The notes: generated by a model from the letters alone, not told the origin. A stretch of DNA of 64,000 bases from Alphaproteobacteria bacterium (GCA_965228895.1 OZ245842.1:4992001-5056000), one strand, 5' to 3'. Numbered from the stretch's first letter, positions 25,346 to 38,257 are shown. Program-made: numbers and translations.

Positions 25346-25587
25346 GGGCGCCTGCTGTTCCAGGTTTCGTAAGAGACGAGGTTAAGGTCGCCATACCCAG
25401 GGCTGCAAGGGGGCCCGTTGGAGCCGGTAACCAACGCGGGGGTCACAGTCGCCTCACGGATATGTGATGGCGTAGGCCGACTGGCGGTTCCGCCATCAAC
25501 GCCTTGGACGGCAACAGACCTAGCTTACATACTGTGGCGCCGCCGCGCCATTCTGCCGGCCCCTCGCCATGGAGTACCGCGCCCACC

Positions 25588-27975
25588 ATGACCGCAAAAT
25601 CCCTGCGCGCCGAACAGATCGGCAAACCATCGTTCGCCGGCCGTTTCGAGCTGCCCGACGCCAAAGACGACGACATCCGCCTGTTCGACCTGCCGAGCCA
25701 CAAGCGCGCCCGCGAGGCCTTGGACTTCGCGCTGCCGATCAGGGACATCGGCTACAACATCTTTGTGCTGGGCGAAGACCGCACCGGTCGCATGGACGCG
25801 ACCATGACCTATGTGAAGGACTTCATCGACGGTCAGAAACCGTCAGACGACTGGGTCTATCTCAACAACTTTCGGCGCCCCCACAAACCGCGTCCGATCC
25901 GCCTGCCCGCCGGCAAGGGACGCCGGTTCCGCGACGACATGAAGGAATTGGTGCCGGCCATCACGGAGGCGCTGCGCAAGGCCTTTACCGGCGACGCCTA
26001 CGCCGACGAGGTGCGCACCGAGCAGGAGCGTACCAAAAAACAGTTGGACGCGGCCTATAGCGGACTGCGCGAACAGGCGCGGGCCGAAGGACTGGACGTT
26101 TGGTCCAGCCAACAGGGATTGTCCCTTGTCGTCTTGGGCGACGACGGCAAACCGCGCAGCCAGGAAGAACTGATGGCGCTGCCCGACGATGAGCGCAAAC
26201 GTCTGGAGGAAGCCATCGACCGTTTGAATCCGGCGATGGTGGACATGCGCGCGACGGCGCGCCGCGCGGAGGTCGAGCTGGCCCGCAACATCCGCGACAT
26301 CAACCGCCGCATCGCCGATGAGACGACGGGCACGCTGCTGACGGATCTGGAGGAGGAGTATGCCGCCCACCCCGGTCTGCGACGCTGGCTCGTCGAGCTG
26401 AGGAACGACATTCTGGACAACCTGCACCTGTTTCAGGTGCAAGAGCCACCGGAAGGCCAGGCGCAACAGGATCCGATGACGCGCTATGCGGTCAACCTGC
26501 TGGTCGACAACGGCGACACCAAACACCCGAATGTCGTGCTGGAGGCGAACCCGACCTATCAGAACATCTTCGGCTCGATCGAGTACCGGCCGGTCAGCGG
26601 TACGCTTCAGACAGATTTCACAATGATCCGCGGCGGCGCCCTGCACCGGGCCAATGGCGGAATTCTTGTGCTGCGCGCCGAGGCGATCGCGGCCGAACCG
26701 GCGGCGTGGCATTTCTTGAAGGGCGCGCTGCGCGACAACGAGATCCGTATCGAGGAGCTCTATCGTTTCGGCGGTGTGCCCATGACCGGCACTCCCCAAC
26801 CCAAAGCAATTCCGTTGGACGTCAAGGTCGTGCTGATCGGCGCGCCAATCTGGTACCAGCGTTTTTTGAACCTTGATTCGGACTTCCGCACGTTTTTCAA
26901 GATCAAGGCCGAGATCGACGGCGAGGTCGAAGCCGAAGGCGACGACGCCAACATCCAGACCTTCGCGCGCCTGATTCAAAGAGCAGCCGGCAGAGCCGGG
27001 CGGGTTTGCGACGCCGGCGCGATCGACAACCTGATGGGTCACGCCGCGCGCTGGGCATCGGACCGCGACAAACTCTCCGCGCGTTTCGAGCTGGTCGAGG
27101 ACGTTCTGACCGAAGCCTGCCTGTTGTGCGGCAAAGATGAACCGCTGACGGCGGAGCAGGTCGAAAAGGCGCTGAACGACAGGCTCAGACGCAACAGCCG
27201 ACCGGAAGACCGCAGCCAGGAGCAGATCGAAAAAGGCACGGTCATGATCGATACCGACGGCGCGGCGCCGGGTCAGGTCAACGGCTTGGTCTATCTGAAC
27301 GTTGGCGATCATACCTTCGGTCTGCCGTCGCGCATTACCGCGCGTGCCTCGGTTGGCTCCTACGGCGTCGTCAACATCGAACGCATGGTCAACATGGGCG
27401 GGCCGATCCAGCAGAAAGGCGCGTTAATCGTCGAGGGTTTCTTGTCGGGTCTGTTCGCTCAGCGTTTCCCGCTCTCGTTCTCCTGCTCCATCACGTTCGA
27501 ACAATCCTATGGCGGCGTCGAGGGCGACAGCGCGTCGCTTGCCGAGGTCTGTGCGATTCTCTCGGCGCTGTCGGGACTGCCGCTACGCCAGGACATCGCC
27601 ATGACCGGGTCGGTCAACCAGGCCGGCGATGTCCAGGCAATCGGCGGCGCCATCGAAAAGATTGAGGGTTTCTACCGGGTCTGTTCAGAGCGCGGTTTGA
27701 CCGGCAACCAGGGCGCGCTGGTGCCTGCAGCCAACGAGCGCCACTTGATCTTGAAGCCGGAGATCGTCGAAGCGGTTTCCGATGGCCGGTTCCACGTCTG
27801 GAGCGCGACGCGGGTGAGCGACGCCATCGAACTGTTGACCGGCCGGCCGGCCGGCGAACCGGACGCCGACGGCAACTACCCGCCCGACAGCGTCTTCGGT
27901 CTTGCCATGGCGCAGCTGGAAGCGTTCGACCAGGCGCTGACCGAGCGCGGCGCCATTCGTCTGGGTGGTCTTTGA
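25588..27975 (+). CDS. LonC-like Lon-family protease (degenerate AAA + Ser-Lys protease domain)
   Basis: DWVYLNNF..P.KP, GALHRANGG, GQVNGL, FEQSYGGVEGDSAS, TGSVNQ.G..QAIGG..EKIEGF. Confidence 0.85.
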   Translation: MTAKSLRAEQIGKPSFAGRFELPDAKDDDIRLFDLPSHKRAREALDFALPIRDIGYNIFVLGEDRTGRMDATMTYVKDFIDGQKPSDDWVYLNNFRRPHKPRPIRLPAGKGRRFRDDMKELVPAITEALRKAFTGDAYADEVRTEQERTKKQLDAAYSGLREQARAEGLDVWSSQQGLSLVVLGDDGKPRSQEELMALPDDERKRLEEAIDRLNPAMVDMRATARRAEVELARNIRDINRRIADETTGTLLTDLEEEYAAHPGLRRWLVELRNDILDNLHLFQVQEPPEGQAQQDPMTRYAVNLLVDNGDTKHPNVVLEANPTYQNIFGSIEYRPVSGTLQTDFTMIRGGALHRANGGILVLRAEAIAAEPAAWHFLKGALRDNEIRIEELYRFGGVPMTGTPQPKAIPLDVKVVLIGAPIWYQRFLNLDSDFRTFFKIKAEIDGEVEAEGDDANIQTFARLIQRAAGRAGRVCDAGAIDNLMGHAARWASDRDKLSARFELVEDVLTEACLLCGKDEPLTAEQVEKALNDRLRRNSRPEDRSQEQIEKGTVMIDTDGAAPGQVNGLVYLNVGDHTFGLPSRITARASVGSYGVVNIERMVNMGGPIQQKGALIVEGFLSGLFAQRFPLSFSCSITFEQSYGGVEGDSASLAEVCAILSALSGLPLRQDIAMTGSVNQAGDVQAIGGAIEKIEGFYRVCSERGLTGNQGALVPAANERHLILKPEIVEAVSDGRFHVWSATRVSDAIELLTGRPAGEPDADGNYPPDSVFGLAMAQLEAFDQALTERGAIRLGGL

Positions 27976-28484
27976 TGGCAGGCGCCGACCTGGTCGTCTC
28001 GCCGGACGGCCACGCCAAGCTCGGTCGGCGCCGTTTTCGCTGCGCCGTGGGCCGCGGTGGCGTCAGGGGTTTCAAGCTGGAAGGTGACGGCGCGACGCCG
28101 GCGGGTGTCTTCCCGCTACGCCGCCTGTTCTACCGCCCCGACCGCATCCGCGATCCGGAAACCGGCCTGCCGTGCGTGACCCTGACGCCGGCCGACGGCT
28201 GGTGCGATGACCCCGCCGATCCCAACTACAACCGTCCGGTCAAGCGACCGTTCTGGAAAGGCCACGAGGTCATGTGGCGCGGCGACCACCTTTACGACCT
28301 CGTCGTCGACGTCGGCTACAACGACGACCCGCCGGTGCCCGGCCGCGGCAGCGCGATCTTTCTGCATCTCGCGCGTCCCGACTACAGCCCGACGGAGGGC
28401 TGCGTCGCCTTTTCGCGCGATGACTTTCTTTGGATTCTCTCACGGCTGACGCCGCAGTCACGCCTGGTTGTCGAACCCAAGTGA
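27975..28484 (+). CDS. L,D-transpeptidase (YkuD-like) family protein
   Basis: EGDGATP.G, GWCDDP..P.YN, GSAIFLH...PTEGCVA (His/Cys). Confidence 0.85.
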   Translation: MAGADLVVSPDGHAKLGRRRFRCAVGRGGVRGFKLEGDGATPAGVFPLRRLFYRPDRIRDPETGLPCVTLTPADGWCDDPADPNYNRPVKRPFWKGHEVMWRGDHLYDLVVDVGYNDDPPVPGRGSAIFLHLARPDYSPTEGCVAFSRDDFLWILSRLTPQSRLVVEPK

Positions 28485-28492
28485 GCTGACGG

Positions 28493-29182
28493 TCAGGCCG
28501 ATGGCAGCGGCGGTCTGTGCCCGAAGATGGCCGTGCCTACGCGGACATGGGTCGCGCCGAAGGTGACGGCGATTGGAAAATCGCCGCTCATACCCATGGA
28601 GAGCTGATCAAGGCCGTTGCGCCGCGCGATCTCGCGTAGCAACGCAAAGTGCATGGACGGTTCTTCGTCGAAGGGCGGGATACACATCAGCCCGACGACG
28701 TTCAGCCCGCTATCGCGCGCAATGGTAACCAGCCCGTCTGTGTCGTCAGGCAGCACGCCCGCTTTCTGCGGCTCTTCGCCCGTGTTGACCTGAACGAAGC
28801 AGGCGGGACGGCGATCCTGCTTGTCCATCTCTTTGGCCAGCGCGCGGACCAGCTTTTCGCGATCGATGGTTTGGATGACGTCAAACAGCGCGATGGCATT
28901 CTTTGCCTTGTTGGTCTGCAGAGGCCCGATCAGGTGCAGCTCGACATCGGGGAACTGTTCTATGAGTGCGGGCCACTTGGTCTCCGCCTCCTGCACCCGG
29001 TTCTCGCCGAAGACACGATGACCGGCATGGAGGACGGGCAGGATGTGCGCGGCATCATGGGTCTTGCTGACCGCAATCAAGGTGACGTCGTCGCGATTTC
29101 TGCCGGCGTCGCGCGCGGCCGCTGCGATTGCCGCGTGCACCTCCTTCAAGTTCGCCGCGACGTCTAGGTCATCACCCGTCAT
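28493..29182 (-). CDS. yggS: PLP homeostasis protein YggS
   Basis: LIAVSKTH, FGENRVQE, HLIGPLQTNK, GLMCIPP, LSMGMSGD, VRVGTAIFG. Confidence 0.95.
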   Translation of the reverse strand: MTGDDLDVAANLKEVHAAIAAAARDAGRNRDDVTLIAVSKTHDAAHILPVLHAGHRVFGENRVQEAETKWPALIEQFPDVELHLIGPLQTNKAKNAIALFDVIQTIDREKLVRALAKEMDKQDRRPACFVQVNTGEEPQKAGVLPDDTDGLVTIARDSGLNVVGLMCIPPFDEEPSMHFALLREIARRNGLDQLSMGMSGDFPIAVTFGATHVRVGTAIFGHRPPLPSA

Positions 29183-30014
29183 GTCCGTCACTTCCATAAC
29201 CGAACCGTGCCATCTGTGTGCCATGGTCCGCCACAATACGGGCAGACTGTTCGTCGGTCAGCACCTGTCGCCACGTGCCGGATTGTCCGACGCGAAAAAA
29301 CTGGTCCTGGCGGTGCGAGCGTTCGACAAAGCCGGAAGTTCTTTCCTGGCGACTCAACTGCCGGAACGACGTGTTGGCCAGCGCACGGCGAAACACCTGT
29401 TCGTCGCTCGTGAGACCTAGAAAACGCAGAACGCCCGCAAAGGAAGTCTCGGGATCGCACAGCAGATCCTCATAGCGAACGGTGTGTACACTGTCGTTGC
29501 CCGGCGCCGTCCACGTCGCGACGTTCTGCGACCAGCTGCCGGGAAACTCCGTGACATGGGTTTCGTCCAGTTGGGTATGGGCGTGCTCTGTCGCCATGAT
29601 CTCGATGACGCGATCGATGGTCACCGCCAAATGATCGGCATAGGACACGGCGACATCGCGTGGGTCGCGCACCAGATAGACGGCGCCCGCCGTGACGTCG
29701 ATGGCGTGGCTCGGCTTGCCGCCGATGCGGGTCAGCGCCGAGTGGGTCTTGATCAGCATGTTGGCCGAGCCGGACCGGGCGAGCGAGCGTTGTACGTCAG
29801 CTCTGAGGGCCGCGATTCCGGCATCGCCCAACGCGTCGAGCGGCTGGTCGGCAACATGTTCGAAGTCGGGACGCCAGGCATCGCTGCGCGATGACTTGGC
29901 GAGAGCATTGAGATCAAGCGGCCCGCCCTTGTCATGCAGAACATTGTGCAAGAAGGCGCGCAGCCAGGTGTTGCCGGATTTCGGGTAGCTGGCGAGCCAG
30001 ACGATCCTGCCCAT
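29172..30014 (-). CDS. PAPS-dependent sulfotransferase (array copy 8, last transcribed)
   Basis: 5'-PSB SYPKSGNTW, KTH, RDPRDVAVS, RYEDL, FFRVGQSGTW. Confidence 0.92.
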   Translation of the reverse strand: MGRIVWLASYPKSGNTWLRAFLHNVLHDKGGPLDLNALAKSSRSDAWRPDFEHVADQPLDALGDAGIAALRADVQRSLARSGSANMLIKTHSALTRIGGKPSHAIDVTAGAVYLVRDPRDVAVSYADHLAVTIDRVIEIMATEHAHTQLDETHVTEFPGSWSQNVATWTAPGNDSVHTVRYEDLLCDPETSFAGVLRFLGLTSDEQVFRRALANTSFRQLSRQERTSGFVERSHRQDQFFRVGQSGTWRQVLTDEQSARIVADHGTQMARFGYGSDGHDG

Positions 30015-30026
30015 GGCGGAGCCGGC

Positions 30027-30863
30027 CTAGAATCCGTCCGGCAGGTAACCGAAGCGCGCCATCTGCGGTCGGTGTGCCTCGACGATCCTGCGCACCTGGG
30101 CGTCGCTCAGAACTTCGCGCCATTCCTCGACACGGCCTGAGCGGAAGAAATGATCTTGCACCGGCGTACGTTCAACAAACCCGGTTTTGGCTTCCATCCT
30201 TCTGGCTGTGTCGAACGCGGCGTGCCTGACCGCGCGATCGATCTTTTCGGGCGTTGTCTCGATCCGCATGAAGCTGACGAGATCACCAAAGGCGGTTTTG
30301 GCATCGTCCACCATATCCTCGTAGCGCATGATGTGGATCATCGGGCTGTCGGTCGCCGTCCAACTTGTCACATGCTGCGACCAACTGCCCATGACCTCAT
30401 ACACATTGGTCGCGTTGGTCGGCGTGCGAAACATATCGGTCGCCATGATCTCGGTCATGGCGTCAATCGCGATGCCCTGGTGATGGGCATAGGAGATGAC
30501 GACGTCCAGCGGGTTTCTGACCACATAGACCGCGCCGTGGGTCACCGTCATGTTGATCGTCGGGACACCGCCGACCTTGACGAACGCGCTGTGGGTCTTG
30601 ACCGGAACAACACCCTCGCGTGTCTGGCTGATGCGCTCCTGAACCTGGGGCCTCAGACGCGCGATGTCGGCGTCGGACCAGTCCTGCCACGGCCGCTGAT
30701 CGAACAACGCAAAACCTGCGGTGCCCGGTTCGGCAAGCGTCACCTCGCCGATCCGGTTGATGTCGAAGGGTGTCGGGCTATCCGCCAAGAGGTTACTGAG
30801 GAAAAGACGCAGCCACGTGTTGCCGGATTTCGGATAGCTGGCGAGCCACAGAATCTTACCCAT
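30027..30863 (-). CDS. PAPS-dependent sulfotransferase (copy 7)
   Basis: SYPKSGNTW, KTH, RNPLDVVIS, RYEDM, FFRSGRVEEW. Confidence 0.92.
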   Translation of the reverse strand: MGKILWLASYPKSGNTWLRLFLSNLLADSPTPFDINRIGEVTLAEPGTAGFALFDQRPWQDWSDADIARLRPQVQERISQTREGVVPVKTHSAFVKVGGVPTINMTVTHGAVYVVRNPLDVVISYAHHQGIAIDAMTEIMATDMFRTPTNATNVYEVMGSWSQHVTSWTATDSPMIHIMRYEDMVDDAKTAFGDLVSFMRIETTPEKIDRAVRHAAFDTARRMEAKTGFVERTPVQDHFFRSGRVEEWREVLSDAQVRRIVEAHRPQMARFGYLPDGF

Positions 30864-30872
30864 GTGGCGACC

Positions 30873-31709
30873 TCACATGCCGTCCGGCACGTAGCCGAAG
30901 CGCGCCATCTGCACACGGTGCCGTTCGACAAGACGCGTCACCTGACGTTCGCTGAGGACCTTGCGCCATCCGCCGCTTTGGCCGTCGCCAAAGAAGCGCC
31001 CCTGGTTTTTCGTCCGTTCGTGAAAACCGCCCTCGTCTTCGAGACGGCGCAGTACATCGATCCGCGAATGAGAAACCGCGCGCGCCAAGTTCTCCGGCGT
31101 CACCTTCAAAGTCAGGAAACCGCAAATCTCGGCGAACGTGGCTTCGGTATCAGCGATCATGTCTTCGTAGCGCACGACGTGGATCGCAGGATTGGGTTGC
31201 ATGGTCCAGCTTGCCACGTTCTGCGACCAACCGCCCTGCACGAATTCCGTCAGAGCCTCGGTGCGCGGCAGCATATGGCCAGGCGTCGACATCAAGGTAA
31301 TCGTCTGGTCGTGATCAAGCCCGGCGTGACGCGCGTAGGAGATGACGATGTCGAGCGGGTTGCGGACGATGTAAATGGCGCCGGCGCTGACCGACATGTC
31401 GAATGCCGGTTGGCCGCACATCGGCATTAGCGCGGCGTGCGTCTTGATGAAGATGCTGTCGTCGCGCAGGCCCGCCAAGTAGCGCTGCACCTTAAGCCGC
31501 AACCGTGCGACATCATCGGTTGTCCAGGACTTGGGTGGACGATCATCGACCTCGCCGTACCAGCGCATCACCGTATCGCCGGTCGACATGCGGCTGACCT
31601 CGTCCAACTGCGCCGGTTGCTCCGAGCCCGAGAAGAGGTTCAACAGCAGCATCCTGAGCCAGGTGTTGCCGGATTTCGGATAGCTGGCGAGCCAGACGAT
31701 ATTGCCCAC
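30873..31709 (-). CDS. PAPS-dependent sulfotransferase (copy 6)
   Basis: SYPKSGNTW, KTH, RNPLDIVIS, RYEDM, FFGDGQSGGW; GTG start. Confidence 0.9.
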   Translation of the reverse strand: MGNIVWLASYPKSGNTWLRMLLLNLFSGSEQPAQLDEVSRMSTGDTVMRWYGEVDDRPPKSWTTDDVARLRLKVQRYLAGLRDDSIFIKTHAALMPMCGQPAFDMSVSAGAIYIVRNPLDIVISYARHAGLDHDQTITLMSTPGHMLPRTEALTEFVQGGWSQNVASWTMQPNPAIHVVRYEDMIADTEATFAEICGFLTLKVTPENLARAVSHSRIDVLRRLEDEGGFHERTKNQGRFFGDGQSGGWRKVLSERQVTRLVERHRVQMARFGYVPDGM

Positions 31710-31780
31710 GGGTAACCGGCCGCTCCTAGGACCTGGCTAAATCGACGGGCGCACCGGCCACGAATAGGGCGTCGGAAACG

Positions 31781-32617
31781 CTAGAGGCCGTCGGGCACAT
31801 AACTGAACCGCTCCATCTGTTTGCGGTGTGCGGCAACCACGGCGCGTGCCTCATCATCGGTCAGCTCGCCGCGCCACGACCCGGACTTCCCGGTTCGAAA
31901 GAAGCGACGCTGCGCCATCGTTCGTTCACGAAAGCCATCCCGTTCCTCAAGCGCGCGAAGAACACTGAAGGACGAGTTCTCGACGGCGCGTTCGATCCGT
32001 TTCGGCGTTGTATCCAAGCGAAGAAATTGGGCGAGGCCGGAGAACACCTTGAGCGGATCCGCCAGCATGGTTTCATAACCCATGACGTGCAGGGCCGGAT
32101 TGGCGCGACCGGTCCAGCTCTCAACGTTTTGCGACCAGCTGCCCCACGGCTCACCCGCCATAGTCTGCGTCGTTGGTGTCTCGTAGTTGTCGAGGTTCAT
32201 CATCTCGATCGTCTTGGGTATCGTCAGGCCCTGATGATCCGCCAGCGATGAGACGATATCCAGCGGGTTTCGCACGATGTAAACCGCGCCGGCTGTGACG
32301 GACATGTTGATCGTCGGGTGACCGCGTACCTGAAGAACCGACATGTGCGTCTTGCAGAACATCATGTGCTGCTGACGTTCACTCAGCTTTTTCTGAACAG
32401 CCGGCCGCATGGCCGCGACATCGTCCGGTGTCCATTCCTGCCATGGTCGTTTGTCGGATGCCGTGAAGTTCGGCAACGCCGCCTCGTTGGCGGTCAACGC
32501 GTCCATCTTATTGATATCAAAAGGCGATTCGGGATCACGAAACAGGTTGTGCAGAAAAGCCCGGACCCAGGTGTTGCCCGACTTTGGATAGCTCGCAATC
32601 CAAATGATGCCGCCCAT
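31781..32617 (-). CDS. PAPS-dependent sulfotransferase (copy 5)
   Basis: Start at MGGIIWIASYPKSGNTW (by alignment with paralogs), KTH, RNPLDIVSS, FFRTGKSGSW. Confidence 0.92.
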   Translation of the reverse strand: MGGIIWIASYPKSGNTWVRAFLHNLFRDPESPFDINKMDALTANEAALPNFTASDKRPWQEWTPDDVAAMRPAVQKKLSERQQHMMFCKTHMSVLQVRGHPTINMSVTAGAVYIVRNPLDIVSSLADHQGLTIPKTIEMMNLDNYETPTTQTMAGEPWGSWSQNVESWTGRANPALHVMGYETMLADPLKVFSGLAQFLRLDTTPKRIERAVENSSFSVLRALEERDGFRERTMAQRRFFRTGKSGSWRGELTDDEARAVVAAHRKQMERFSYVPDGL

Positions 32618-32625
32618 CGTCTGAT

Positions 32626-33465
32626 CTAGAAACCGTCGGGCACGTAACCGAAGCGTTCCATTTGCTCCCGGTGCGTATCGACAATTGCCGCGATCTGATC
32701 GTCGGTCAGCGTATCGCGCCAAGCGCCGGACTTGCCGCTACGGAAGAAACGTTCCTGGTTGGGCGAACGTTCGACAAAACCGAACTTGTCCTCTTGGGCC
32801 TTCAGCACCTTGAACGACGAATTCTTGATCGCGCGTTCAAGCCGCCCCCGCGGCACATCAAGTTGCAGAAATTTGGTGACCGCACCAAAGGTCTTCACCG
32901 GCGATGACTTGAGGTCCTCGTAGCGGACGGTTTTCAGCATTTGTCCTTCGCTCCCCGTCCAACTGGCCACGTGCTGGCTCCAACTGCCGAGTGCCTCCGT
33001 CACGTTCGAGCCGCCGACCGGCGTTTCGAAGTTTTCCGTTGCCATCATCTTGGTTGCCATATCGATGTCGACGCCCTGAAAATCGGCAAACGAAATCACG
33101 ACATCGAGCGGATTGCGGATGATGTAGATGGCGCCGGCCGACACCTGCATGTTGACCGTCGGAAATCCACGGACCGACAAAAGAGCGCAGTGCGTCTTGC
33201 AGAACACGGAACCGGTCTGCGACTGGGCAATCATCTCATGGGCGCGCGGGCGCATGCGCGCAATGTCATCGTGCGTCCACTCCTCCGGCGGCCGTGAATC
33301 GATAAGCCGGTACCAACCGCTCGAGGACTCGCCCTGGCTCAAGCTGCCGGTCATCTGGTTGATGTTCATCGCCTGTTTGGGGTCGCGGAACAGGTTATGC
33401 AGAAAGGCCCGCATCCAGGTATTGCCGGATTTCGGATAGCTGGCGAGCCAAACGATGTTTCCCAT
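32626..33465 (-). CDS. PAPS-dependent sulfotransferase (copy 4)
   Basis: SYPKSGNTW, KTH, RNPLDVVIS, RYEDL, FFRSGKSGAW. Confidence 0.92.
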   Translation of the reverse strand: MGNIVWLASYPKSGNTWMRAFLHNLFRDPKQAMNINQMTGSLSQGESSSGWYRLIDSRPPEEWTHDDIARMRPRAHEMIAQSQTGSVFCKTHCALLSVRGFPTVNMQVSAGAIYIIRNPLDVVISFADFQGVDIDMATKMMATENFETPVGGSNVTEALGSWSQHVASWTGSEGQMLKTVRYEDLKSSPVKTFGAVTKFLQLDVPRGRLERAIKNSSFKVLKAQEDKFGFVERSPNQERFFRSGKSGAWRDTLTDDQIAAIVDTHREQMERFGYVPDGF

Positions 33466-33482
33466 GGGTTTGTCTCCGCCGC

Positions 33483-34325
33483 CTAAAAGCCGGCCGGCAC
33501 GTAATCGAAACGCTGCATCTGTTCGCGATGGTCGGCAACCACCTTTGCAATCTGCTCGTCGTCGAGTTCATCCTTCCAATGCCCGGCCGTACCCTTGCGG
33601 AAGAAGCGATCCTGGGCCGGCGAGCGTTCGGCGAAACCGTGCTTGTCTTCTTGCGCGCGCAAGACCTTGAACGACGAGTTCTTCACGGCCCGTTCGATAC
33701 GCGCGCGTGGCGCGTCGACCTTGAGGAATCTGGCAATGTTGGAGAACATTTTTACCGGTGCTTTCAGCATGTCCTCATAGCGTACGACAAGCAGACCGGG
33801 ATTTGGCCTGCCCGTCCAGGACTCGACATTTTGTGTCCAAGAACCCAATGGTTCGGAAACGCTTTCGCGATCGTTCGGCAACTCGCAGTTGGTCGTGCCC
33901 AATATCGTTATCGCCTTGTCGACGTCGATGCCTTGAAAGTCAGCAAAGGAGAGCGCGACGTCCAGCGGGTTGCGCACGATGTAGATGGCGCCGGCCGTCA
34001 CGTCCAGGTTGACCGTGGTGTGGCCGCGCAGCTCAAGCAACGCGCAATGCGTCTTACAAAAAATGGTGCCCGGATGATTATCGGCGATCAGCTGATGGAC
34101 CTTGGGCCGCATGGCGTCTATGTCGGGGCGGGTCCATTCCTCCGGTGGACGTGAATCGAGCATCTTGTACCACTTCATGACGGCCTCGCCGGTCGAGATC
34201 AGCCCGCCACCAATCTCGTTTATGTCGAGCGCCTCGCCTGGATTGCGAAACAGGTTATGCAGGAAAGCGCGCAACCAGGTATTGCCGGATTTGGGATAGC
34301 TTGCCAGCCAGATGATGTTGCCCAC
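33483..34325 (-). CDS. PAPS-dependent sulfotransferase (copy 3)
   Basis: SYPKSGNTW, KTH, RNPLDVALS, RYEDM, FFRKGTAGHW. Confidence 0.92.
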   Translation of the reverse strand: MGNIIWLASYPKSGNTWLRAFLHNLFRNPGEALDINEIGGGLISTGEAVMKWYKMLDSRPPEEWTRPDIDAMRPKVHQLIADNHPGTIFCKTHCALLELRGHTTVNLDVTAGAIYIVRNPLDVALSFADFQGIDVDKAITILGTTNCELPNDRESVSEPLGSWTQNVESWTGRPNPGLLVVRYEDMLKAPVKMFSNIARFLKVDAPRARIERAVKNSSFKVLRAQEDKHGFAERSPAQDRFFRKGTAGHWKDELDDEQIAKVVADHREQMQRFDYVPAGF

Positions 34326-34342
34326 GTCTTACGCCTGTTCCG

Positions 34343-35185
34343 CTAGTAGCCATGAGGAATGTAATCAAACCGGGCCATCTGCTCACGATGAGCCTGGATG
34401 ATCGATTGAGCTTGATCGTCGTTCAATTCATCGCGCCATCCGCCGACCTTGCCGGCACGAAAGAAACGCTCCTGACGATCGGTCCGCTCCGAGAAACCGT
34501 CCTTTTCCTCCATCGTCTTCAACGTCTCGAACGACGAAAACGAAAGCGCGCGTTCTAACCTGTCAGGCGGTGGATTGAGACCCAGGAACCGGACCAGGCC
34601 ACCAAACGTCTCGTCGGGCCGTTCCACGAGATCCTCATACCGCATGATGTGCAAGGCCGGATTGGGGCGCGCGGTCCAGCTCTGAACATGCTCGCTCCAG
34701 CTTCCGATGAGGTGCGGGACCTGCTTGGTTCGCCCTGGCAGCACATGGCCCGTATCGTTCATGACCTTGATGATGTAATCCGGGCCTGAGCCGGAGTGGG
34801 CGGCATAGGACGCGACTATGTCGAGTGGATTGCGCAGGATATAGATGGCGCCTGCAGTAAGCCCAAAGTCAATCACCGGGTAGCCATGCCACTGCACAAG
34901 GGCGCAGTGCGTCTTGACAAAGATGTTGTCGGGCGCGTGTTTGGCGATTTCTTGTTGGGCGGCCGACCGCAGACTGGCCACCCTTTCTTCCTCCCATATC
35001 TCCGGCGTCTCGCCTGATGCCTCTTCGAACCAATGGCGCGTTGTGTCGAGCGGCGACATCGCGCTTACATCATCCGGCGAAAACGGTTGCTTCGGGTTCA
35101 TGAAGAGGTGCAGCAGAAACGCGCGCGTCCACGTGTTGCCGGACTTCGGATAGGACGCGAGCCAAATGATCTTGCCTTTCGTCAC
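34343..35185 (-). CDS. PAPS-dependent sulfotransferase (copy 2)
   Basis: SYPKSGNTW, KTH, RNPLDIVAS, RYEDL, FFRAGKVGGW. Confidence 0.92.
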   Translation of the reverse strand: MTKGKIIWLASYPKSGNTWTRAFLLHLFMNPKQPFSPDDVSAMSPLDTTRHWFEEASGETPEIWEEERVASLRSAAQQEIAKHAPDNIFVKTHCALVQWHGYPVIDFGLTAGAIYILRNPLDIVASYAAHSGSGPDYIIKVMNDTGHVLPGRTKQVPHLIGSWSEHVQSWTARPNPALHIMRYEDLVERPDETFGGLVRFLGLNPPPDRLERALSFSSFETLKTMEEKDGFSERTDRQERFFRAGKVGGWRDELNDDQAQSIIQAHREQMARFDYIPHGY

Positions 35186-35188
35186 GCG

Positions 35189-36040
35189 TCAGTGACCCTT
35201 CGGCACGTAGCCGAAGCGTTCCATGTCCGCGCGGTGGCTCTTGACCACGCGCGCCACCTGGTCGTCGGAGAGCACGTCGCACCATTGGCCTTTCTTTCCG
35301 ACACGGAAAAATCGGTCGGCATGCTCACTGCGCTCGACAAAGCCATCCCTTTCTTCCTGTTTCCGCAACACCTGGAACGAAGCGTGGCGGACGGCGCGTT
35401 CGATTTGCGGGCGCGGGACATCGAGACCGAGAAATTTCGCGACGCCGGCAAAGGTCCGATGGGTCTCATCGAGCATGTCTTCGTAGCGCACCACGTGAAG
35501 ACCCGGATTGGGCCTGCCCGTCCAACTTTCGACGTGCTGGGACCAACTGCCAATAAAATCGATCATCAAGGTGTCGGACATCGATGTATGGGAATTCTGG
35601 GTCGCCATGAGATCAATGATGTCGTCGACCGGTCGCCCGAGGTGATGGCTGAACGACACCACCACGTCAAGCGGATTGCGGATGATGTAGATGGCGCCGG
35701 CCGTCACCGCCAGATTGATCGTTGGGTGTCCAGCGAACTCAAGTACCGCGCTGTGTGTCTTGATGAATCGTGTCCCGGTGGCTTGACCGGCAAGCGCCTC
35801 CTGGACCGGCGCTCTGAGTGCGGCGATCTCGCTCGCCGTCATCCCGTCGAGAGACCGCCCCGCGACCGCCGCGTAGTGTTCCGGCGTCACGTCGCCGGTC
35901 GTTAGGTCGTCCAGACGGTTGATGGCATGAGGTCGCTGTCCTTTCAGCATCATGTTGTGCAGAAAAGCACGCATCCAGGTGTTGCCGGACTTCGGATAGC
36001 TGGCAAGCCAGATCAGATTTCCCATTTTTGCCGCCGACAT
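35189..36040 (-). CDS. PAPS-dependent sulfotransferase (copy 1, first transcribed)
   Basis: SYPKSGNTW, KTH, RNPLDVVVS, RYEDM, FFRVGKKGQW. Confidence 0.92.
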   Translation of the reverse strand: MSAAKMGNLIWLASYPKSGNTWMRAFLHNMMLKGQRPHAINRLDDLTTGDVTPEHYAAVAGRSLDGMTASEIAALRAPVQEALAGQATGTRFIKTHSAVLEFAGHPTINLAVTAGAIYIIRNPLDVVVSFSHHLGRPVDDIIDLMATQNSHTSMSDTLMIDFIGSWSQHVESWTGRPNPGLHVVRYEDMLDETHRTFAGVAKFLGLDVPRPQIERAVRHASFQVLRKQEERDGFVERSEHADRFFRVGKKGQWCDVLSDDQVARVVKSHRADMERFGYVPKGH

Positions 36041-36096
36041 GCTCGCTGCAGGAGCGATCTCTGTTGCTGGCCGGGTCTAGCATAAGAACAGCGGAC

Positions 36097-36125
36097 AAAA
36101 AAAGGGGCGGCCGAAGCCGCCCCTT
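36097..36125 (-). terminator. Rho-independent terminator of the porin gene
   Basis: Minus strand aaggggcggc-ttcg-gccgcccctt followed by a T-run, about 27 nt after the porin stop. Confidence 0.88.
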
Positions 36126-36152
36126 CTCGACATGTCCTCGGTAGAGGACAGA

Positions 36153-37361
36153 TCAGAAGCTGATCAACAGACCGGCACCACCGAAGTAGGTGTCGTAGTC
36201 GCGATTGACCACACCGTCATCAAACTGGTCGAAACCAACAGCACCAGTTACCGCGATACCCGGGCCCAGGTCGTACTGACCCATCAGGCGATAGGCATCA
36301 AACTCGTCGGTAACCGCAGCCGCGGCAAGTGTACCGGCAGAGTAGTCGGTCTCGGAATGCAGCCAGTAGATACCAGCACTCCAGGGACCGTCTGCGTAGT
36401 ACGACAGACCGACGTCAAAGGTTTCGATGTCCGTACCGGCGACGTTGGCGTTGTCCGATGTGTTCATGTACGAACCACCGAGACCCCAGTTGCCGTAGTA
36501 GAGGACAACACCGGCATTCCATGAGTTGGAATCCGTGGTGCCAATGTTGATAGGCGCGTTCTGGATGGCCTTCGACTGAACATCCAAATAGCCGCCAGCC
36601 ACGGTCAGACCGACATCGCCGATCTCACCGTCATAACGGGCGCCAACCGACCAGGTCTCACCATGCGTAAACGCTGGCGTCGTGGTCGTACCGCCGATCT
36701 GGACCGGCAGTGTGTACACACCGGCCGGACGGGCTTCCTTGTTGTCCGGCGCATAAGAAGCACCGAACTGGAAGCCGTTGAACACTGGCGAGAAGTACAT
36801 CACCCGCGCATCGTCGCCCGTCTGATTCGGGAACGTGGCGAACGTGACGCTAGCACCGGCCGCGAAACGCGAGCGGGCAAGACCGGTCGTCTGAGCAAAG
36901 AACTGGGACAGACCGTTAGCGAACACGGACGGCGTGTTGGCTGCGAACACGTAGTTAATGTAAGGCGCAGCCGTTGCCATGTTGTAGGACGCCGGATCAT
37001 CGTTACCAATCCGGAAGGTACCGAACGAGCCTTCGATGTAGGCGTAGTTCTCGTCCAGCTGATCGCCCTGGGTCTCGCCCTCGATCTCGATGCGAACACC
37101 GACTTCAAGGCCGTTATCCAGAACGGTCTTACCGCGAACCTGCAACTCGCCATCAAACTTGATGTCGTGGTCGCCTTTGTTAAAGCCGGGCTCGTTCGGA
37201 ATCGAAACACCGTTGCCCGCGCTGTCGTCATTGTCGGCGAGGAACACCGCCCAATTGTGGTAACCACCGAAGCTAAGCTCAATCGGCTCGGCAGCGGACG
37301 CCTGTCCGGCAACCAGGCCAACCGAAACCATCGCGGTGGTCCCAAGCAGCACTTTCTTCAT
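36153..37361 (-). CDS. Major outer-membrane porin (alphaproteobacterial type)
   Basis: Signal peptide MKKVLLGTTA..QASA, T.LDNGL.VG...E.EG, DENYAY.EGSFG, amphipathic beta strands, C-terminal Phe; RBS aggagg. Confidence 0.9.
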   Translation of the reverse strand: MKKVLLGTTAMVSVGLVAGQASAAEPIELSFGGYHNWAVFLADNDDSAGNGVSIPNEPGFNKGDHDIKFDGELQVRGKTVLDNGLEVGVRIEIEGETQGDQLDENYAYIEGSFGTFRIGNDDPASYNMATAAPYINYVFAANTPSVFANGLSQFFAQTTGLARSRFAAGASVTFATFPNQTGDDARVMYFSPVFNGFQFGASYAPDNKEARPAGVYTLPVQIGGTTTTPAFTHGETWSVGARYDGEIGDVGLTVAGGYLDVQSKAIQNAPINIGTTDSNSWNAGVVLYYGNWGLGGSYMNTSDNANVAGTDIETFDVGLSYYADGPWSAGIYWLHSETDYSAGTLAAAAVTDEFDAYRLMGQYDLGPGIAVTGAVGFDQFDDGVVNRDYDTYFGGAGLLISF

Positions 37362-37678
37362 TGCGCAAACCTCCTAAGGGACTAACTCTTAAACGCCTTT
37401 CCGGAACGGAAAGAAAAATCAGGTTCTGGTTTGACCGGCACCTGGCTTTCGCCAGGGCCTCAACGCCGGCCAAGGGACCGCGCCCGATTACGGCGTTGAA
37501 ACTACTGGAGCTAAAAAACAAACCCAAGACTTTTGGGGTACCGCTTGTGGCTTTTCCAACCCACTGTGGCAAGAATGCCGCAGTAGGTGTTGGAAACTAC
37601 AGGCATTCCCCGCTTGCCGAGGCCCGGTCAATAAGCCAATGTGCGCCATCTATAGAAAGGTCATAAACAGGTGTATTC

Positions 37679-38257
37679 TTGCTCACGACGACGAGGGAAA
37701 CGACCATCTTGTACCACTTTCGAGTAGTCGCGTTGGTGTTGACGGCAGCGGTGCTGGTGGCCTGCGGCCCCTCCGAGGGCTCCGGTGTGGCCGATACCGT
37801 GCAGACGCCCCAGGGCAGGTTCGAAAAAGACGTCGACGACCCCACCCGCGAGACCATCTTCGGTCCGGGCGGCTTGAGTGCGGCGCTGTTCGACGAACAG
37901 GGCGGCACGGGCGATGGCGGCGGCGGTGGCGGTATCGGCGTCAACGCATTCCTTTGGCGCGCTGCGCTCGATACATTCTCGTTTCTGCCGCCATTCTCTG
38001 CCGATCCGATCGGCGGCGTAATCATTTATGACTGGTATTCGCCGCCCGAGACCCCTGGCGAGCGGTTCAAGGTCACGGTCTATATCCTTGACACGCGGCT
38101 TCGCGCGGACGGCATAAAAGTCGCGGTTTTCCGCCAAGTTCGCGATGTCTATGGCGAATGGGTCGAGGCTCAGGTCGATGCTTCCATGGAAACGCAGCTT
38201 GAGAACGCGGTATTGACCCGCGCCCGCCAGATCAGGATCGCCCAGCTCGGGCAGTAA
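37679..38257 (+). CDS. DUF3576-family lipoprotein
   Basis: Lipobox LVAC; GVNAFLWRAALDT.SF.P..SADP.GGVII.DWYS; position upstream of leuS; start uncertain. Confidence 0.78.
   Translation: MLTTTRETTILYHFRVVALVLTAAVLVACGPSEGSGVADTVQTPQGRFEKDVDDPTRETIFGPGGLSAALFDEQGGTGDGGGGGGIGVNAFLWRAALDTFSFLPPFSADPIGGVIIYDWYSPPETPGERFKVTVYILDTRLRADGIKVAVFRQVRDVYGEWVEAQVDASMETQLENAVLTRARQIRIAQLGQ

Follow-up and report, generated by a model that had tools for sequence, protein, structure and literature searches.

What would a bacterium do with eight consecutive sulfotransferase genes? The question is raised by a 64,000-nucleotide stretch of DNA from Alphaproteobacteria bacterium (GCA_965228895.1 OZ245842.1:4992001-5056000), referred to in full as the window, its own genome being denoted G000. 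Here, between an outer-membrane porin gene and a yggS-type gene, stands a tandem array of eight sulfotransferase (ST) genes, whose products carry the motifs of enzymes dependent on 3′-phosphoadenosine 5′-phosphosulfate (PAPS). PAPS-dependent sulfation in bacteria is known from few cases, namely Nod factors, mycobacterial sulfolipids, glycopeptide antibiotics and the steroids sulfated by gut Bacteroides. A literature search, with supplements outside its range, found no description of such an array or of a porin-linked sulfotransferase, and the claim of an initial annotation of this DNA that no bacterial system of this architecture has been described stands within the literature searched. A different context is described in a passage of PMC4110880, where two sulfotransferases of a relative of Parvibaculum lie inside glycosyltransferase clusters. 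The enzyme type itself is known; new are the free-standing array, with its eight to ten conserved paralogues, and the conserved linkage of a subfamily lacking characterized members to a porin. As the best explanation of the whole, to which we assign a probability of roughly 55%, the locus encodes eight functional PAPS O-sulfotransferases with divergent acceptors, small molecules being favoured.

Eight intact members of the Sulfotransfer_1 family

The array consists of eight consecutive minus-strand open reading frames (ORFs) of 278-283 aa that span 29172-36040, contain no internal stops or frameshifts and are separated, counted from the porin side, by 3, 17, 17, 8, 71, 9 and 12 nt (Table 1). 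The ORF listing matches exactly what the initial annotation had read at this locus. In the case of ST4 the program-listed ORF comprises 313 aa from a TTG at 32722, and the ATG at 32617, which aligns with the other copies, was chosen instead.

The initial annotation had assigned the genes to the SULT/Sulfotransfer_1 family from their motifs, and a hidden Markov model search bears this out far above threshold. All eight copies match PF00685 (Sulfotransfer_1) with 88.0-103.6 bits against a cut-off of 22 (E 9e-25 to 1.6e-29), and the matches cover profile positions 4 to 254 or 255, i.e. the full domain; chance is therefore excluded. A second Pfam family, PF13469, is matched more weakly and no further one, and none of the eight copies matched a curated family in NCBIfam. 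The phosphosulfate loop, KTH, R..P.D...S and FF..G..W motifs, reported earlier as kept in every copy, are indeed invariant in the eight-way alignment, whose 53 invariant columns include W.ASYPKSGNTW, K-T-H, R..P.D...S and FF..G....W. Measured against the first copy, overall identity amounts to 39-46%; measured against ST6 it is 42-61%, with 61% reached by ST5. The YPKSGNTW segment, invariant across the eight copies, aligns with the same loop of Teg12, and in an alignment of 127 subfamily members S-G-N-T-W, K91, H93, R118, P120, D122, S126, F241, F242 and G245 are invariant, while the loop Lys is conserved in at least 90% of the members. Catalytic and cofactor-binding roles of the conserved residues are known from solved SULTs. 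Because the proteins begin directly at the cofactor loop and lack a signal peptide, they should be cytoplasmic, at the site of PAPS synthesis. From the sequences we infer that the locus encodes eight active-looking PAPS-dependent sulfotransferases with the SULT/StaL/Teg fold.

Table 1. Sulfotransferase array and adjoining features, with positions in the window; dN/dS, the ratio of nonsynonymous to synonymous substitution rates, is given for the two same-genus comparisons
Feature	Coordinates	Strand	Description	Evidence	dN/dS
Outer-membrane porin	36153..37361	-	402 aa, signal peptide, C-terminal F	PF13609 Porin_4, 134.3 bits	
Candidate intrinsic terminator hairpin	36097..36128	-	13-bp G+C-rich stem, UUCG loop, U-tract	sequence reading and folding	
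ST8	35189..36040	-	283 aa, porin-proximal copy	PF00685, 96.4 bits	0.069, 0.095
ST7	34343..35185	-	280 aa	PF00685, 103.6 bits	0.126, 0.047
ST6	33483..34325	-	280 aa, modelled copy	PF00685, 103.2 bits	0.074, 0.058
ST5	32626..33465	-	279 aa	PF00685, 101.7 bits	0.045, 0.091
ST4	31781..32617	-	278 aa from ATG	PF00685, 102.8 bits	0.126, 0.162
ST3	30873..31709	-	278 aa, preceded by the sole longer gap (71 nt)	PF00685, 88.0 bits	0.089, 0.129
ST2	30027..30863	-	278 aa	PF00685, 102.2 bits	0.066, 0.088
ST1	29172..30014	-	280 aa, yggS-proximal copy	PF00685, 99.1 bits	0.129, 0.132
yggS-type gene for a pyridoxal-phosphate-binding protein	28493..29197	-		PF01168, 78.6 bits	

Fold and closest characterized relatives

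A search of the PDB with a profile of the eight copies returned Teg12 and Teg14 (E ~2e-26) and StaL, followed by animal and plant cytosolic SULTs; the CurM sulfotransferase was a weak match (E 1.3e-05). Teg12 and Teg14 are the best matches, yet their identity to the array enzymes is only 20-24%. ST6 was modelled with AlphaFold2, with the 127-sequence alignment as input, giving a mean predicted local distance difference test score of 96.5 and a predicted template modelling score of 0.93. Foldseek searches with this model gave a probability of 1.00 and template modelling scores of 0.6-0.7 for Teg12, Teg14, StaL and SULT1/2. Among the matches listed (ranks 1-50, similar further chains of the listed entries omitted), Teg12, Teg14, SULT2A1 and StaL were best, retinol dehydratase and plant SOTs were also present, identities were 15-24%, and there was no carbohydrate sulfotransferase.

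Eukaryotic SULTs, too, occur as tandem families, and the differences between their members lie in segments of the acceptor site. SULT1 and SULT2 share the fold, the cofactor motifs and the catalytic His with the array enzymes, which are bacterial and form a distinct subfamily. Like the array enzymes, Teg12, Teg13, Teg14 and StaL (3mgb, 3nib, 2ov8, 4eec) are soluble bacterial Sulfotransfer_1 proteins of ~280 aa with a W.ASYPK.GNTW loop. According to passages of PMC11727664, the teicoplanin aglycone is sulfated at residue 3 by Teg12, at residue 4 by Teg14 and at residue 6 by Teg13, and a further glycopeptide cluster likewise contains three Sulfotransfer_1 genes side by side; the Teg enzymes are the closest precedent for adjacent paralogues of different specificity. 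However, the Teg and StaL genes lie inside actinomycete glycopeptide clusters in one to three copies, whereas the eight-copy array stands alone between porin and yggS, in housekeeping surroundings and linked to the porin. Membership of a glycopeptide cluster was considered for the array and rejected, there being no nonribosomal peptide synthetase (NRPS) gene in the annotated flanks or among the recurrent neighbours of 80 diverse loci of the subfamily.

Age, selection and paralogue-specific sites

Two more genomes of the same genus, G001 and G002, carry eight copies each, and these are one-to-one orthologues of the window copies in the same order. A maximum-likelihood tree (IQ-TREE quick search, LG+G4) was built for 70 family members and 10 sequences of other lineages, 80 in all; in it every window copy forms a trio with a single copy each from G001 and G002, at a support of 98-100, the ST7 trio reaching 100. 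Beyond the genus, the relative of ST1 is the yggS-proximal copy of sister genus g2 (support 99) and that of ST8 its porin-proximal copy (98); ST2 has relatives among the copies of g2 and of a further sister genus, g4 (100), the ST3/ST7 clade is joined by three g2 copies (99), and ST4, ST5 and ST6 are related to g2 and g4 copies (85-96). As the orthogroups span genera and chromosomal order is kept, the duplications must predate the split of these genera, of which there are at least three. The view of the initial annotation that the array is an old, retained expansion is thus supported by the paralogue tree.

Likewise, the calculation of dN/dS proposed there points to selection on the whole set: Nei-Gojobori values for the window copies against G001 and G002 were 0.045-0.162 in all 16 comparisons and, judging from these ratios, every copy is kept under purifying selection since its duplication. 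The base composition dips over the region, with a G+C content of 0.58-0.61 at window positions 30000-38000 as compared with 0.61-0.66 in the adjoining 2-kb bins, and a third-position G+C of 0.68-0.79 in the ST and porin genes against 0.76-0.82 in flanking genes. Because orthology is conserved, this dip is no sign of recent transfer.

The same data bear on the possibility that the array is artefactual, or that its genes are redundant or decaying duplicates. Copies only 39-61% identical at the protein level make collapse or inflation of the assembly implausible, and the whole region, including all eight copies, is tiled by contigs of two DNA-like public runs, one of which stems from another strain (25 differences over 2447 nt). 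Together with the intact ORFs, the eight ordered orthologues in two more genomes and the low dN/dS of every copy, this refutes the artefact or decay explanation on present data, and it is excluded.

Sites that distinguish the paralogues were defined as positions invariant in all or all but one of the 8 orthologous trios and no more than 25% identical between paralogues. All 29 such sites fall within ST6 residues 27-160 (27-52, 86-105 and 125-160), with none after 160, which supports the remark of the initial annotation that divergence lies mainly between the motifs. In the PDB profile search the region from ~28 to 85 was unaligned to solved structures, and that from ~44 to 85 unaligned to Teg12. 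Variable N-terminal segments and segments around the catalytic His line the acceptor site in solved relatives. The pattern is as would be expected of paralogue-specific acceptor sites under selection, without being proof of different substrates. Since the copies differ in segments of the acceptor-site type, a different acceptor or position for each copy seems most likely, and we infer divergent specificity among them.

Distribution of the subfamily and supply of PAPS

At E ≤ 1e-20, no fewer than 7440 protein clusters, bearing generic database names only, fall into the subfamily to which the array belongs; scanning one genome of each species for its motif revealed at least 582 loci, mostly in Alphaproteobacteria, with some in Gammaproteobacteria and others. 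In a class sample of 301 evenly drawn genomes at least 90% complete (including one unpublished genome, G231), 58 carry the subfamily at E ≤ 1e-55. Outside the family of the window, the 54 positive genomes comprise 47 with a single copy and 7 with two; more than two copies were confined, in this sample, to the family of the window. All 24 further genomes of that family that were searched carry an ST gene, with eight copies in the genus of the window, ten in tandem at the same locus in g2 and 1-6 in genera g3, g4 and g5. The eight-gene array is consequently the high end of a family-specific expansion, which ranges from 2 to 10 copies, and the idea of a unique architecture falls with the ten-copy array of g2.

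The genome of the window also holds ST genes of other subfamilies, at G000:C1:5096199-5096933 (~40 kb past the window end), 3069281-3069850, 1260306-1260953, 5491810-5492310 and 3342982-3343617, one matching PF00685 with 139.9 bits and several matching PF13469. In total it encodes ~13-15 PAPS-type sulfotransferases.

The cysD, cysN, cysC and cysQ genes, which the initial annotation had suggested might be found elsewhere in the genome, are all present outside the window: cysD (524.6 bits) with an adjacent fusion of cysN and adenosine 5′-phosphosulfate (APS) kinase at G000:C1:2307000-2309710, ~2.7 Mb from the array, a second APS kinase gene at 5184112, and cysQ (276.9 bits against a cut-off of 228.8). 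An APS kinase is encoded in 56 of the 58 subfamily-positive genomes of the class sample (the exceptions being G005 and G191) as against 126 of the 243 negatives, 182 of 301 overall; this is a hand tally over related genomes, and its counts are non-independent. At the level of single loci, a cysN/C fusion lies directly downstream of the ST gene in 4 of the 80 diverse loci, and no fewer than 9 of the 58 positive genomes have an APS kinase gene within ~3 kb of an ST gene. A dedicated PAPS branch feeding a sulfotransferase is known from Sinorhizobium, where NodH is served by NodP/NodQ. The array resembles NodH as an alphaproteobacterial ST system on a PAPS supply of the CysD/CysNC type, with cysNC adjoining the ST gene in some relatives; unlike NodH/NodPQ, its PAPS genes are remote, nod genes are absent and the constant neighbour is a porin.

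The porin and the genomic neighbourhood

Of the 81 testable ST gene runs in the 80 diverse loci, 27 have a Porin_4 homologue immediately upstream, co-oriented and no more than 500 nt away, as do 20 of the 29 testable runs of family loci. In 3 further loci the porin is divergent, and in another arrangement, seen in 3 loci, a Legionella_OMP-type barrel adjoins the ST gene. The porin is the most constant neighbour of the subfamily across Alphaproteobacteria. A contig of Shewanella marinintestina (L056:5994-11907) has its ST gene between two genes for TonB-dependent receptors, one of them directly upstream on the same strand; such receptors import specific solutes.

In the window the gene order is holA, an lptE-sized ORF, leuS and DUF3576 on the plus strand, then porin, eight ST genes and yggS on the minus strand, and YkuD and a Lon-like protease. 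This order recurs in all family loci that reach far enough and in many loci of other alphaproteobacterial families. The annotated flanks also hold a hydrolase, a major facilitator superfamily protein, a short-chain dehydrogenase/reductase, a cyclase and others. No polysaccharide, NRPS or scaffold genes were recurrent in the 80 diverse loci (cluster representatives scanned) or present in the annotated flanks; the other recurrent neighbours were TPR-Sulfotransfer_3 fusions (15 loci) and cysN/C, the remainder being housekeeping genes. The statement of the initial annotation that no scaffold, transport or PAPS-synthesis genes accompany the array therefore needs amendment with respect to transport, as the upstream Porin_4 gene had been overlooked, and holds for scaffold genes in the annotated flanks and for PAPS genes, which lie outside the window.

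The predicted terminator, a strong one, directly follows the porin stop and ends ~55 nt short of the first ST start. The 115-nt spacer between porin and ST8 folds with a minimum free energy of -51.4 kcal/mol (z -4.35; 0 of 200 shuffles as stable), compared with a z of -0.32, no better than shuffles, for the 71-nt spacer before ST3, and similar hairpins occur between porin and ST in g4. A consensus scan gave 3 promoters against 2.9 expected and 11 terminators against 9.8 expected, i.e. no excess, and overlooked the porin terminator, which came from reading and folding the sequence. Given a terminator after the porin, transcription would be at least attenuated between porin and array. At the other end, the candidate starts of yggS (29197, 29191 and 29182) overlap the stop of ST1 (29172-29174), and yggS is found 3′ of the array in all family loci reaching that far. 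The ST genes probably form one transcription unit, a predicted operon that would end with yggS.

Contigs of X1, a marine metatranscriptome, and of X2, a run guessed to be RNA, match the porin region 36215-37444 with 0-6 differences per piece; an environmental RNA library therefore contains porin transcripts of this organism or of one very close to it. None of these contigs lies on the array, and as contigs cannot show absence they are uninformative on ST expression. A second porin copy, 86% identical and the only further one in the genome, is located outside the window at G000:C1:3213322-3214524, with no ST gene of the family nearby.

Porin-sulfotransferase cassettes in sister genus g4

Four g4 genomes (G016, G017, G022 and G024) have a second region with 3-5 porin-ST pairs each, 15 in total, with spacers of 71-130 nt (island loci L097:5485-15904, L091, L092, L093, L094 and L102). 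Tandem pairs of genes for ~375-aa proteins lie beside these islands; a PF00589 match confirmed one pair as tyrosine recombinases, the others being assigned by size and position only, and none of the six loci contains a tRNA gene. Start codon and signal peptide are kept in 4 of the 17 g4 porins, exactly one per genome, and the remaining 13 are truncated at a common junction immediately behind the signal peptide. At this junction in L097, an inverted repeat of 93 nt with 84% complementarity flanks a 2.76-kb segment, which holds two recombinase genes and the sole promoter-proximal leader.

Site-specific inversion systems, e.g. of the Mycoplasma vsa type, switch surface-protein genes by moving one segment with promoter and leader. 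The g4 islands are similar in combining one complete porin, several 5′-truncated porin-ST cassettes, two tyrosine recombinases and inverted repeats, and their layout would fit an inversion switch that chooses the expressed porin and probably the downstream ST. The window differs from such systems, having eight ST genes behind one complete porin with a signal peptide and no recombinase near the array, and a cassette switch of the g4 type was rejected for it; the four PF00589 matches of G000 are all outside the window, the nearest ~200 kb away.

The cassette STs form a single, recent, g4-only clade (support 100). Median dN/dS is 0.14 for cassette STs (22 pairs) and 0.22 for porins (27 pairs), and the cassette STs, being under purifying selection, appear to be in use. 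Porin and ST co-diverge moderately, with a Spearman coefficient of 0.49 over all 105 pairs and 0.38 (p 0.085) over the 22 within-genome pairs, the pairs being non-independent. The cassettes constitute a natural experiment on the partnership of porin and ST. Recent transfer of a near-identical cassette between G024 and G022 was considered and rejected, as the 4.85-kb collinear stretch at 95.8% identity is ordinary orthology of close species.

Proposed function and alternatives

In the explanation preferred here, each enzyme would bind PAPS through the P-loop-like YPKSGNTW segment together with the R..P.D...S and FF..G..W segments, and the conserved His of K-T-H would serve as the base that deprotonates the acceptor hydroxyl. 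CysD/CysNC would supply the PAPS and CysQ would clear the 3′-phosphoadenosine 5′-phosphate formed, while the terminator would separate the array from a highly expressed upstream porin gene. Each copy would serve a different acceptor or position, and the acceptors would be small hydroxylated organics, whether phenolic, steroid-like or of another metabolite class, which would pass the outer membrane via the linked channel. Small-molecule acceptors are favoured because the fold neighbours act on small molecules, three types of outer-membrane barrel adjoin the genes and no glycan genes are near; this preference over envelope components is the least certain point and is held with low confidence. 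Identification of the acceptors would open up a new bacterial, apparently largely marine, organosulfur or envelope biochemistry, and would provide biocatalysis with a ready set of soluble bacterial sulfotransferases that differ in specificity.

Several observations weigh against this explanation. The generic names of the subfamily include no characterized member, and Teg12 and StaL act on large aglycones, so that likeness of fold at 20-24% identity hardly narrows the acceptor. No inner-membrane transporter, catabolic or scaffold-biosynthesis gene accompanies the array in the annotated flanks, the predicted terminator between porin and array weakens any simple claim of co-expression, and the association with APS kinase suffers from the relatedness of the genomes counted. 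Furthermore, the paired duplication of porin and ST around recombinases in g4 fits surface variation better than metabolism.

This last point leads to the alternative that the enzymes decorate the cell envelope, in that the lipopolysaccharide (LPS) core or O-unit, another glycolipid or a porin precursor would be sulfated at the cytoplasmic face, the array acting as a surface-remodelling unit with a multi-site pattern. Switched or phase-variable loci usually encode surface structures, the neighbour of the ST genes is repeatedly an outer-membrane barrel, of three families, and the g4 islands, with their 15 porin-ST pairs, single complete porin per genome, 13 of 17 porins cut at a shared junction near recombinases and cassette STs under purifying selection, point in the same direction. 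However, no glycosyltransferase, LPS or capsule gene was found among the recurrent neighbours or in the annotated flanks, the fold neighbours are small-molecule enzymes with no carbohydrate sulfotransferase among the matches listed, and the window has one porin for eight enzymes and no recombinase near the array. Joint duplication in g4 is explicable by prior adjacency, and the co-divergence is only moderate. The known LPS sulfotransferase, LpsS of Sinorhizobium meliloti, resembles the array enzymes as a stand-alone cytoplasmic enzyme of an alphaproteobacterium and sulfates an envelope component, but belongs to another family, being annotated as Stf0 in a passage of PMC12445080; homology of the array to LpsS, or Stf0 membership, was rejected, as the copies match only PF00685 and PF13469. 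On balance we regard decoration of the envelope as possible, if on the unlikely side. An unlikely and more speculative extension holds that porin and ST form one surface-design unit, in which the enzymes would sulfate an envelope molecule or the porin and each porin would come with its own sulfation chemistry, switched by a recombinase as whole pairs in g4 and, in the genus of the window, frozen as a single porin with a set of eight enzymes. It would imply a combinatorial surface sulfate pattern, directed for example against phages or grazers, or providing phosphorus-free surface charge.

The precedent of the Teg enzymes, which according to a passage of PMC11727664 sulfate different residues of one aglycone, would also be compatible with multi-site sulfation of a single endogenous scaffold, i.e. 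a natural product or lipid. Teg12, Teg14 and StaL are the best matches in both sequence and fold, and across the genus all eight copies are retained in a constant order. Nevertheless, NRPS, polyketide synthase or other scaffold genes are absent from the annotated flanks and not recurrent in the 80 diverse loci, and because a single scaffold would not predict variation, the range from one copy in most positive genomes outside the family to 2-10 within it speaks against one fixed scaffold, which renders this explanation quite improbable. Still further from what is expected is chemical activation, in which the sulfate would act as a leaving group in an elimination or cyclisation instead of forming a stable modification. 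Retinol dehydratase and the strigolactone enzyme LGS1 (by its title, sulfation-assisted ring formation) are among the fold matches, and CurM matches weakly in sequence, but such matches rank below Teg12, StaL and the SULTs, no partner enzymes are adjacent and nothing specific indicates this chemistry, which we consider highly improbable. Functional PAPS O-sulfotransferases with divergent, preferentially small acceptors remain the explanation we prefer.

Other genes of the neighbourhood

The TPR-Sulfotransfer_3 proteins mentioned above, of ~620-730 aa, represent a second, unrelated-looking type of sulfotransferase in the same neighbourhood (L068:1090-2958 and 20 more ORFs, in 15 of the 80 diverse loci). 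In the window, positions 25504-28484, after yggS and on the opposite strand, encode a LonB/LonC-like AAA protease (823 aa) and a small L,D-transpeptidase of the YkuD type. Lon-like matches also stand beside yggS in L100, L101, L103, L104 and L105, and YkuD matches accompany them only in L100 and L101, which are from the same genus.

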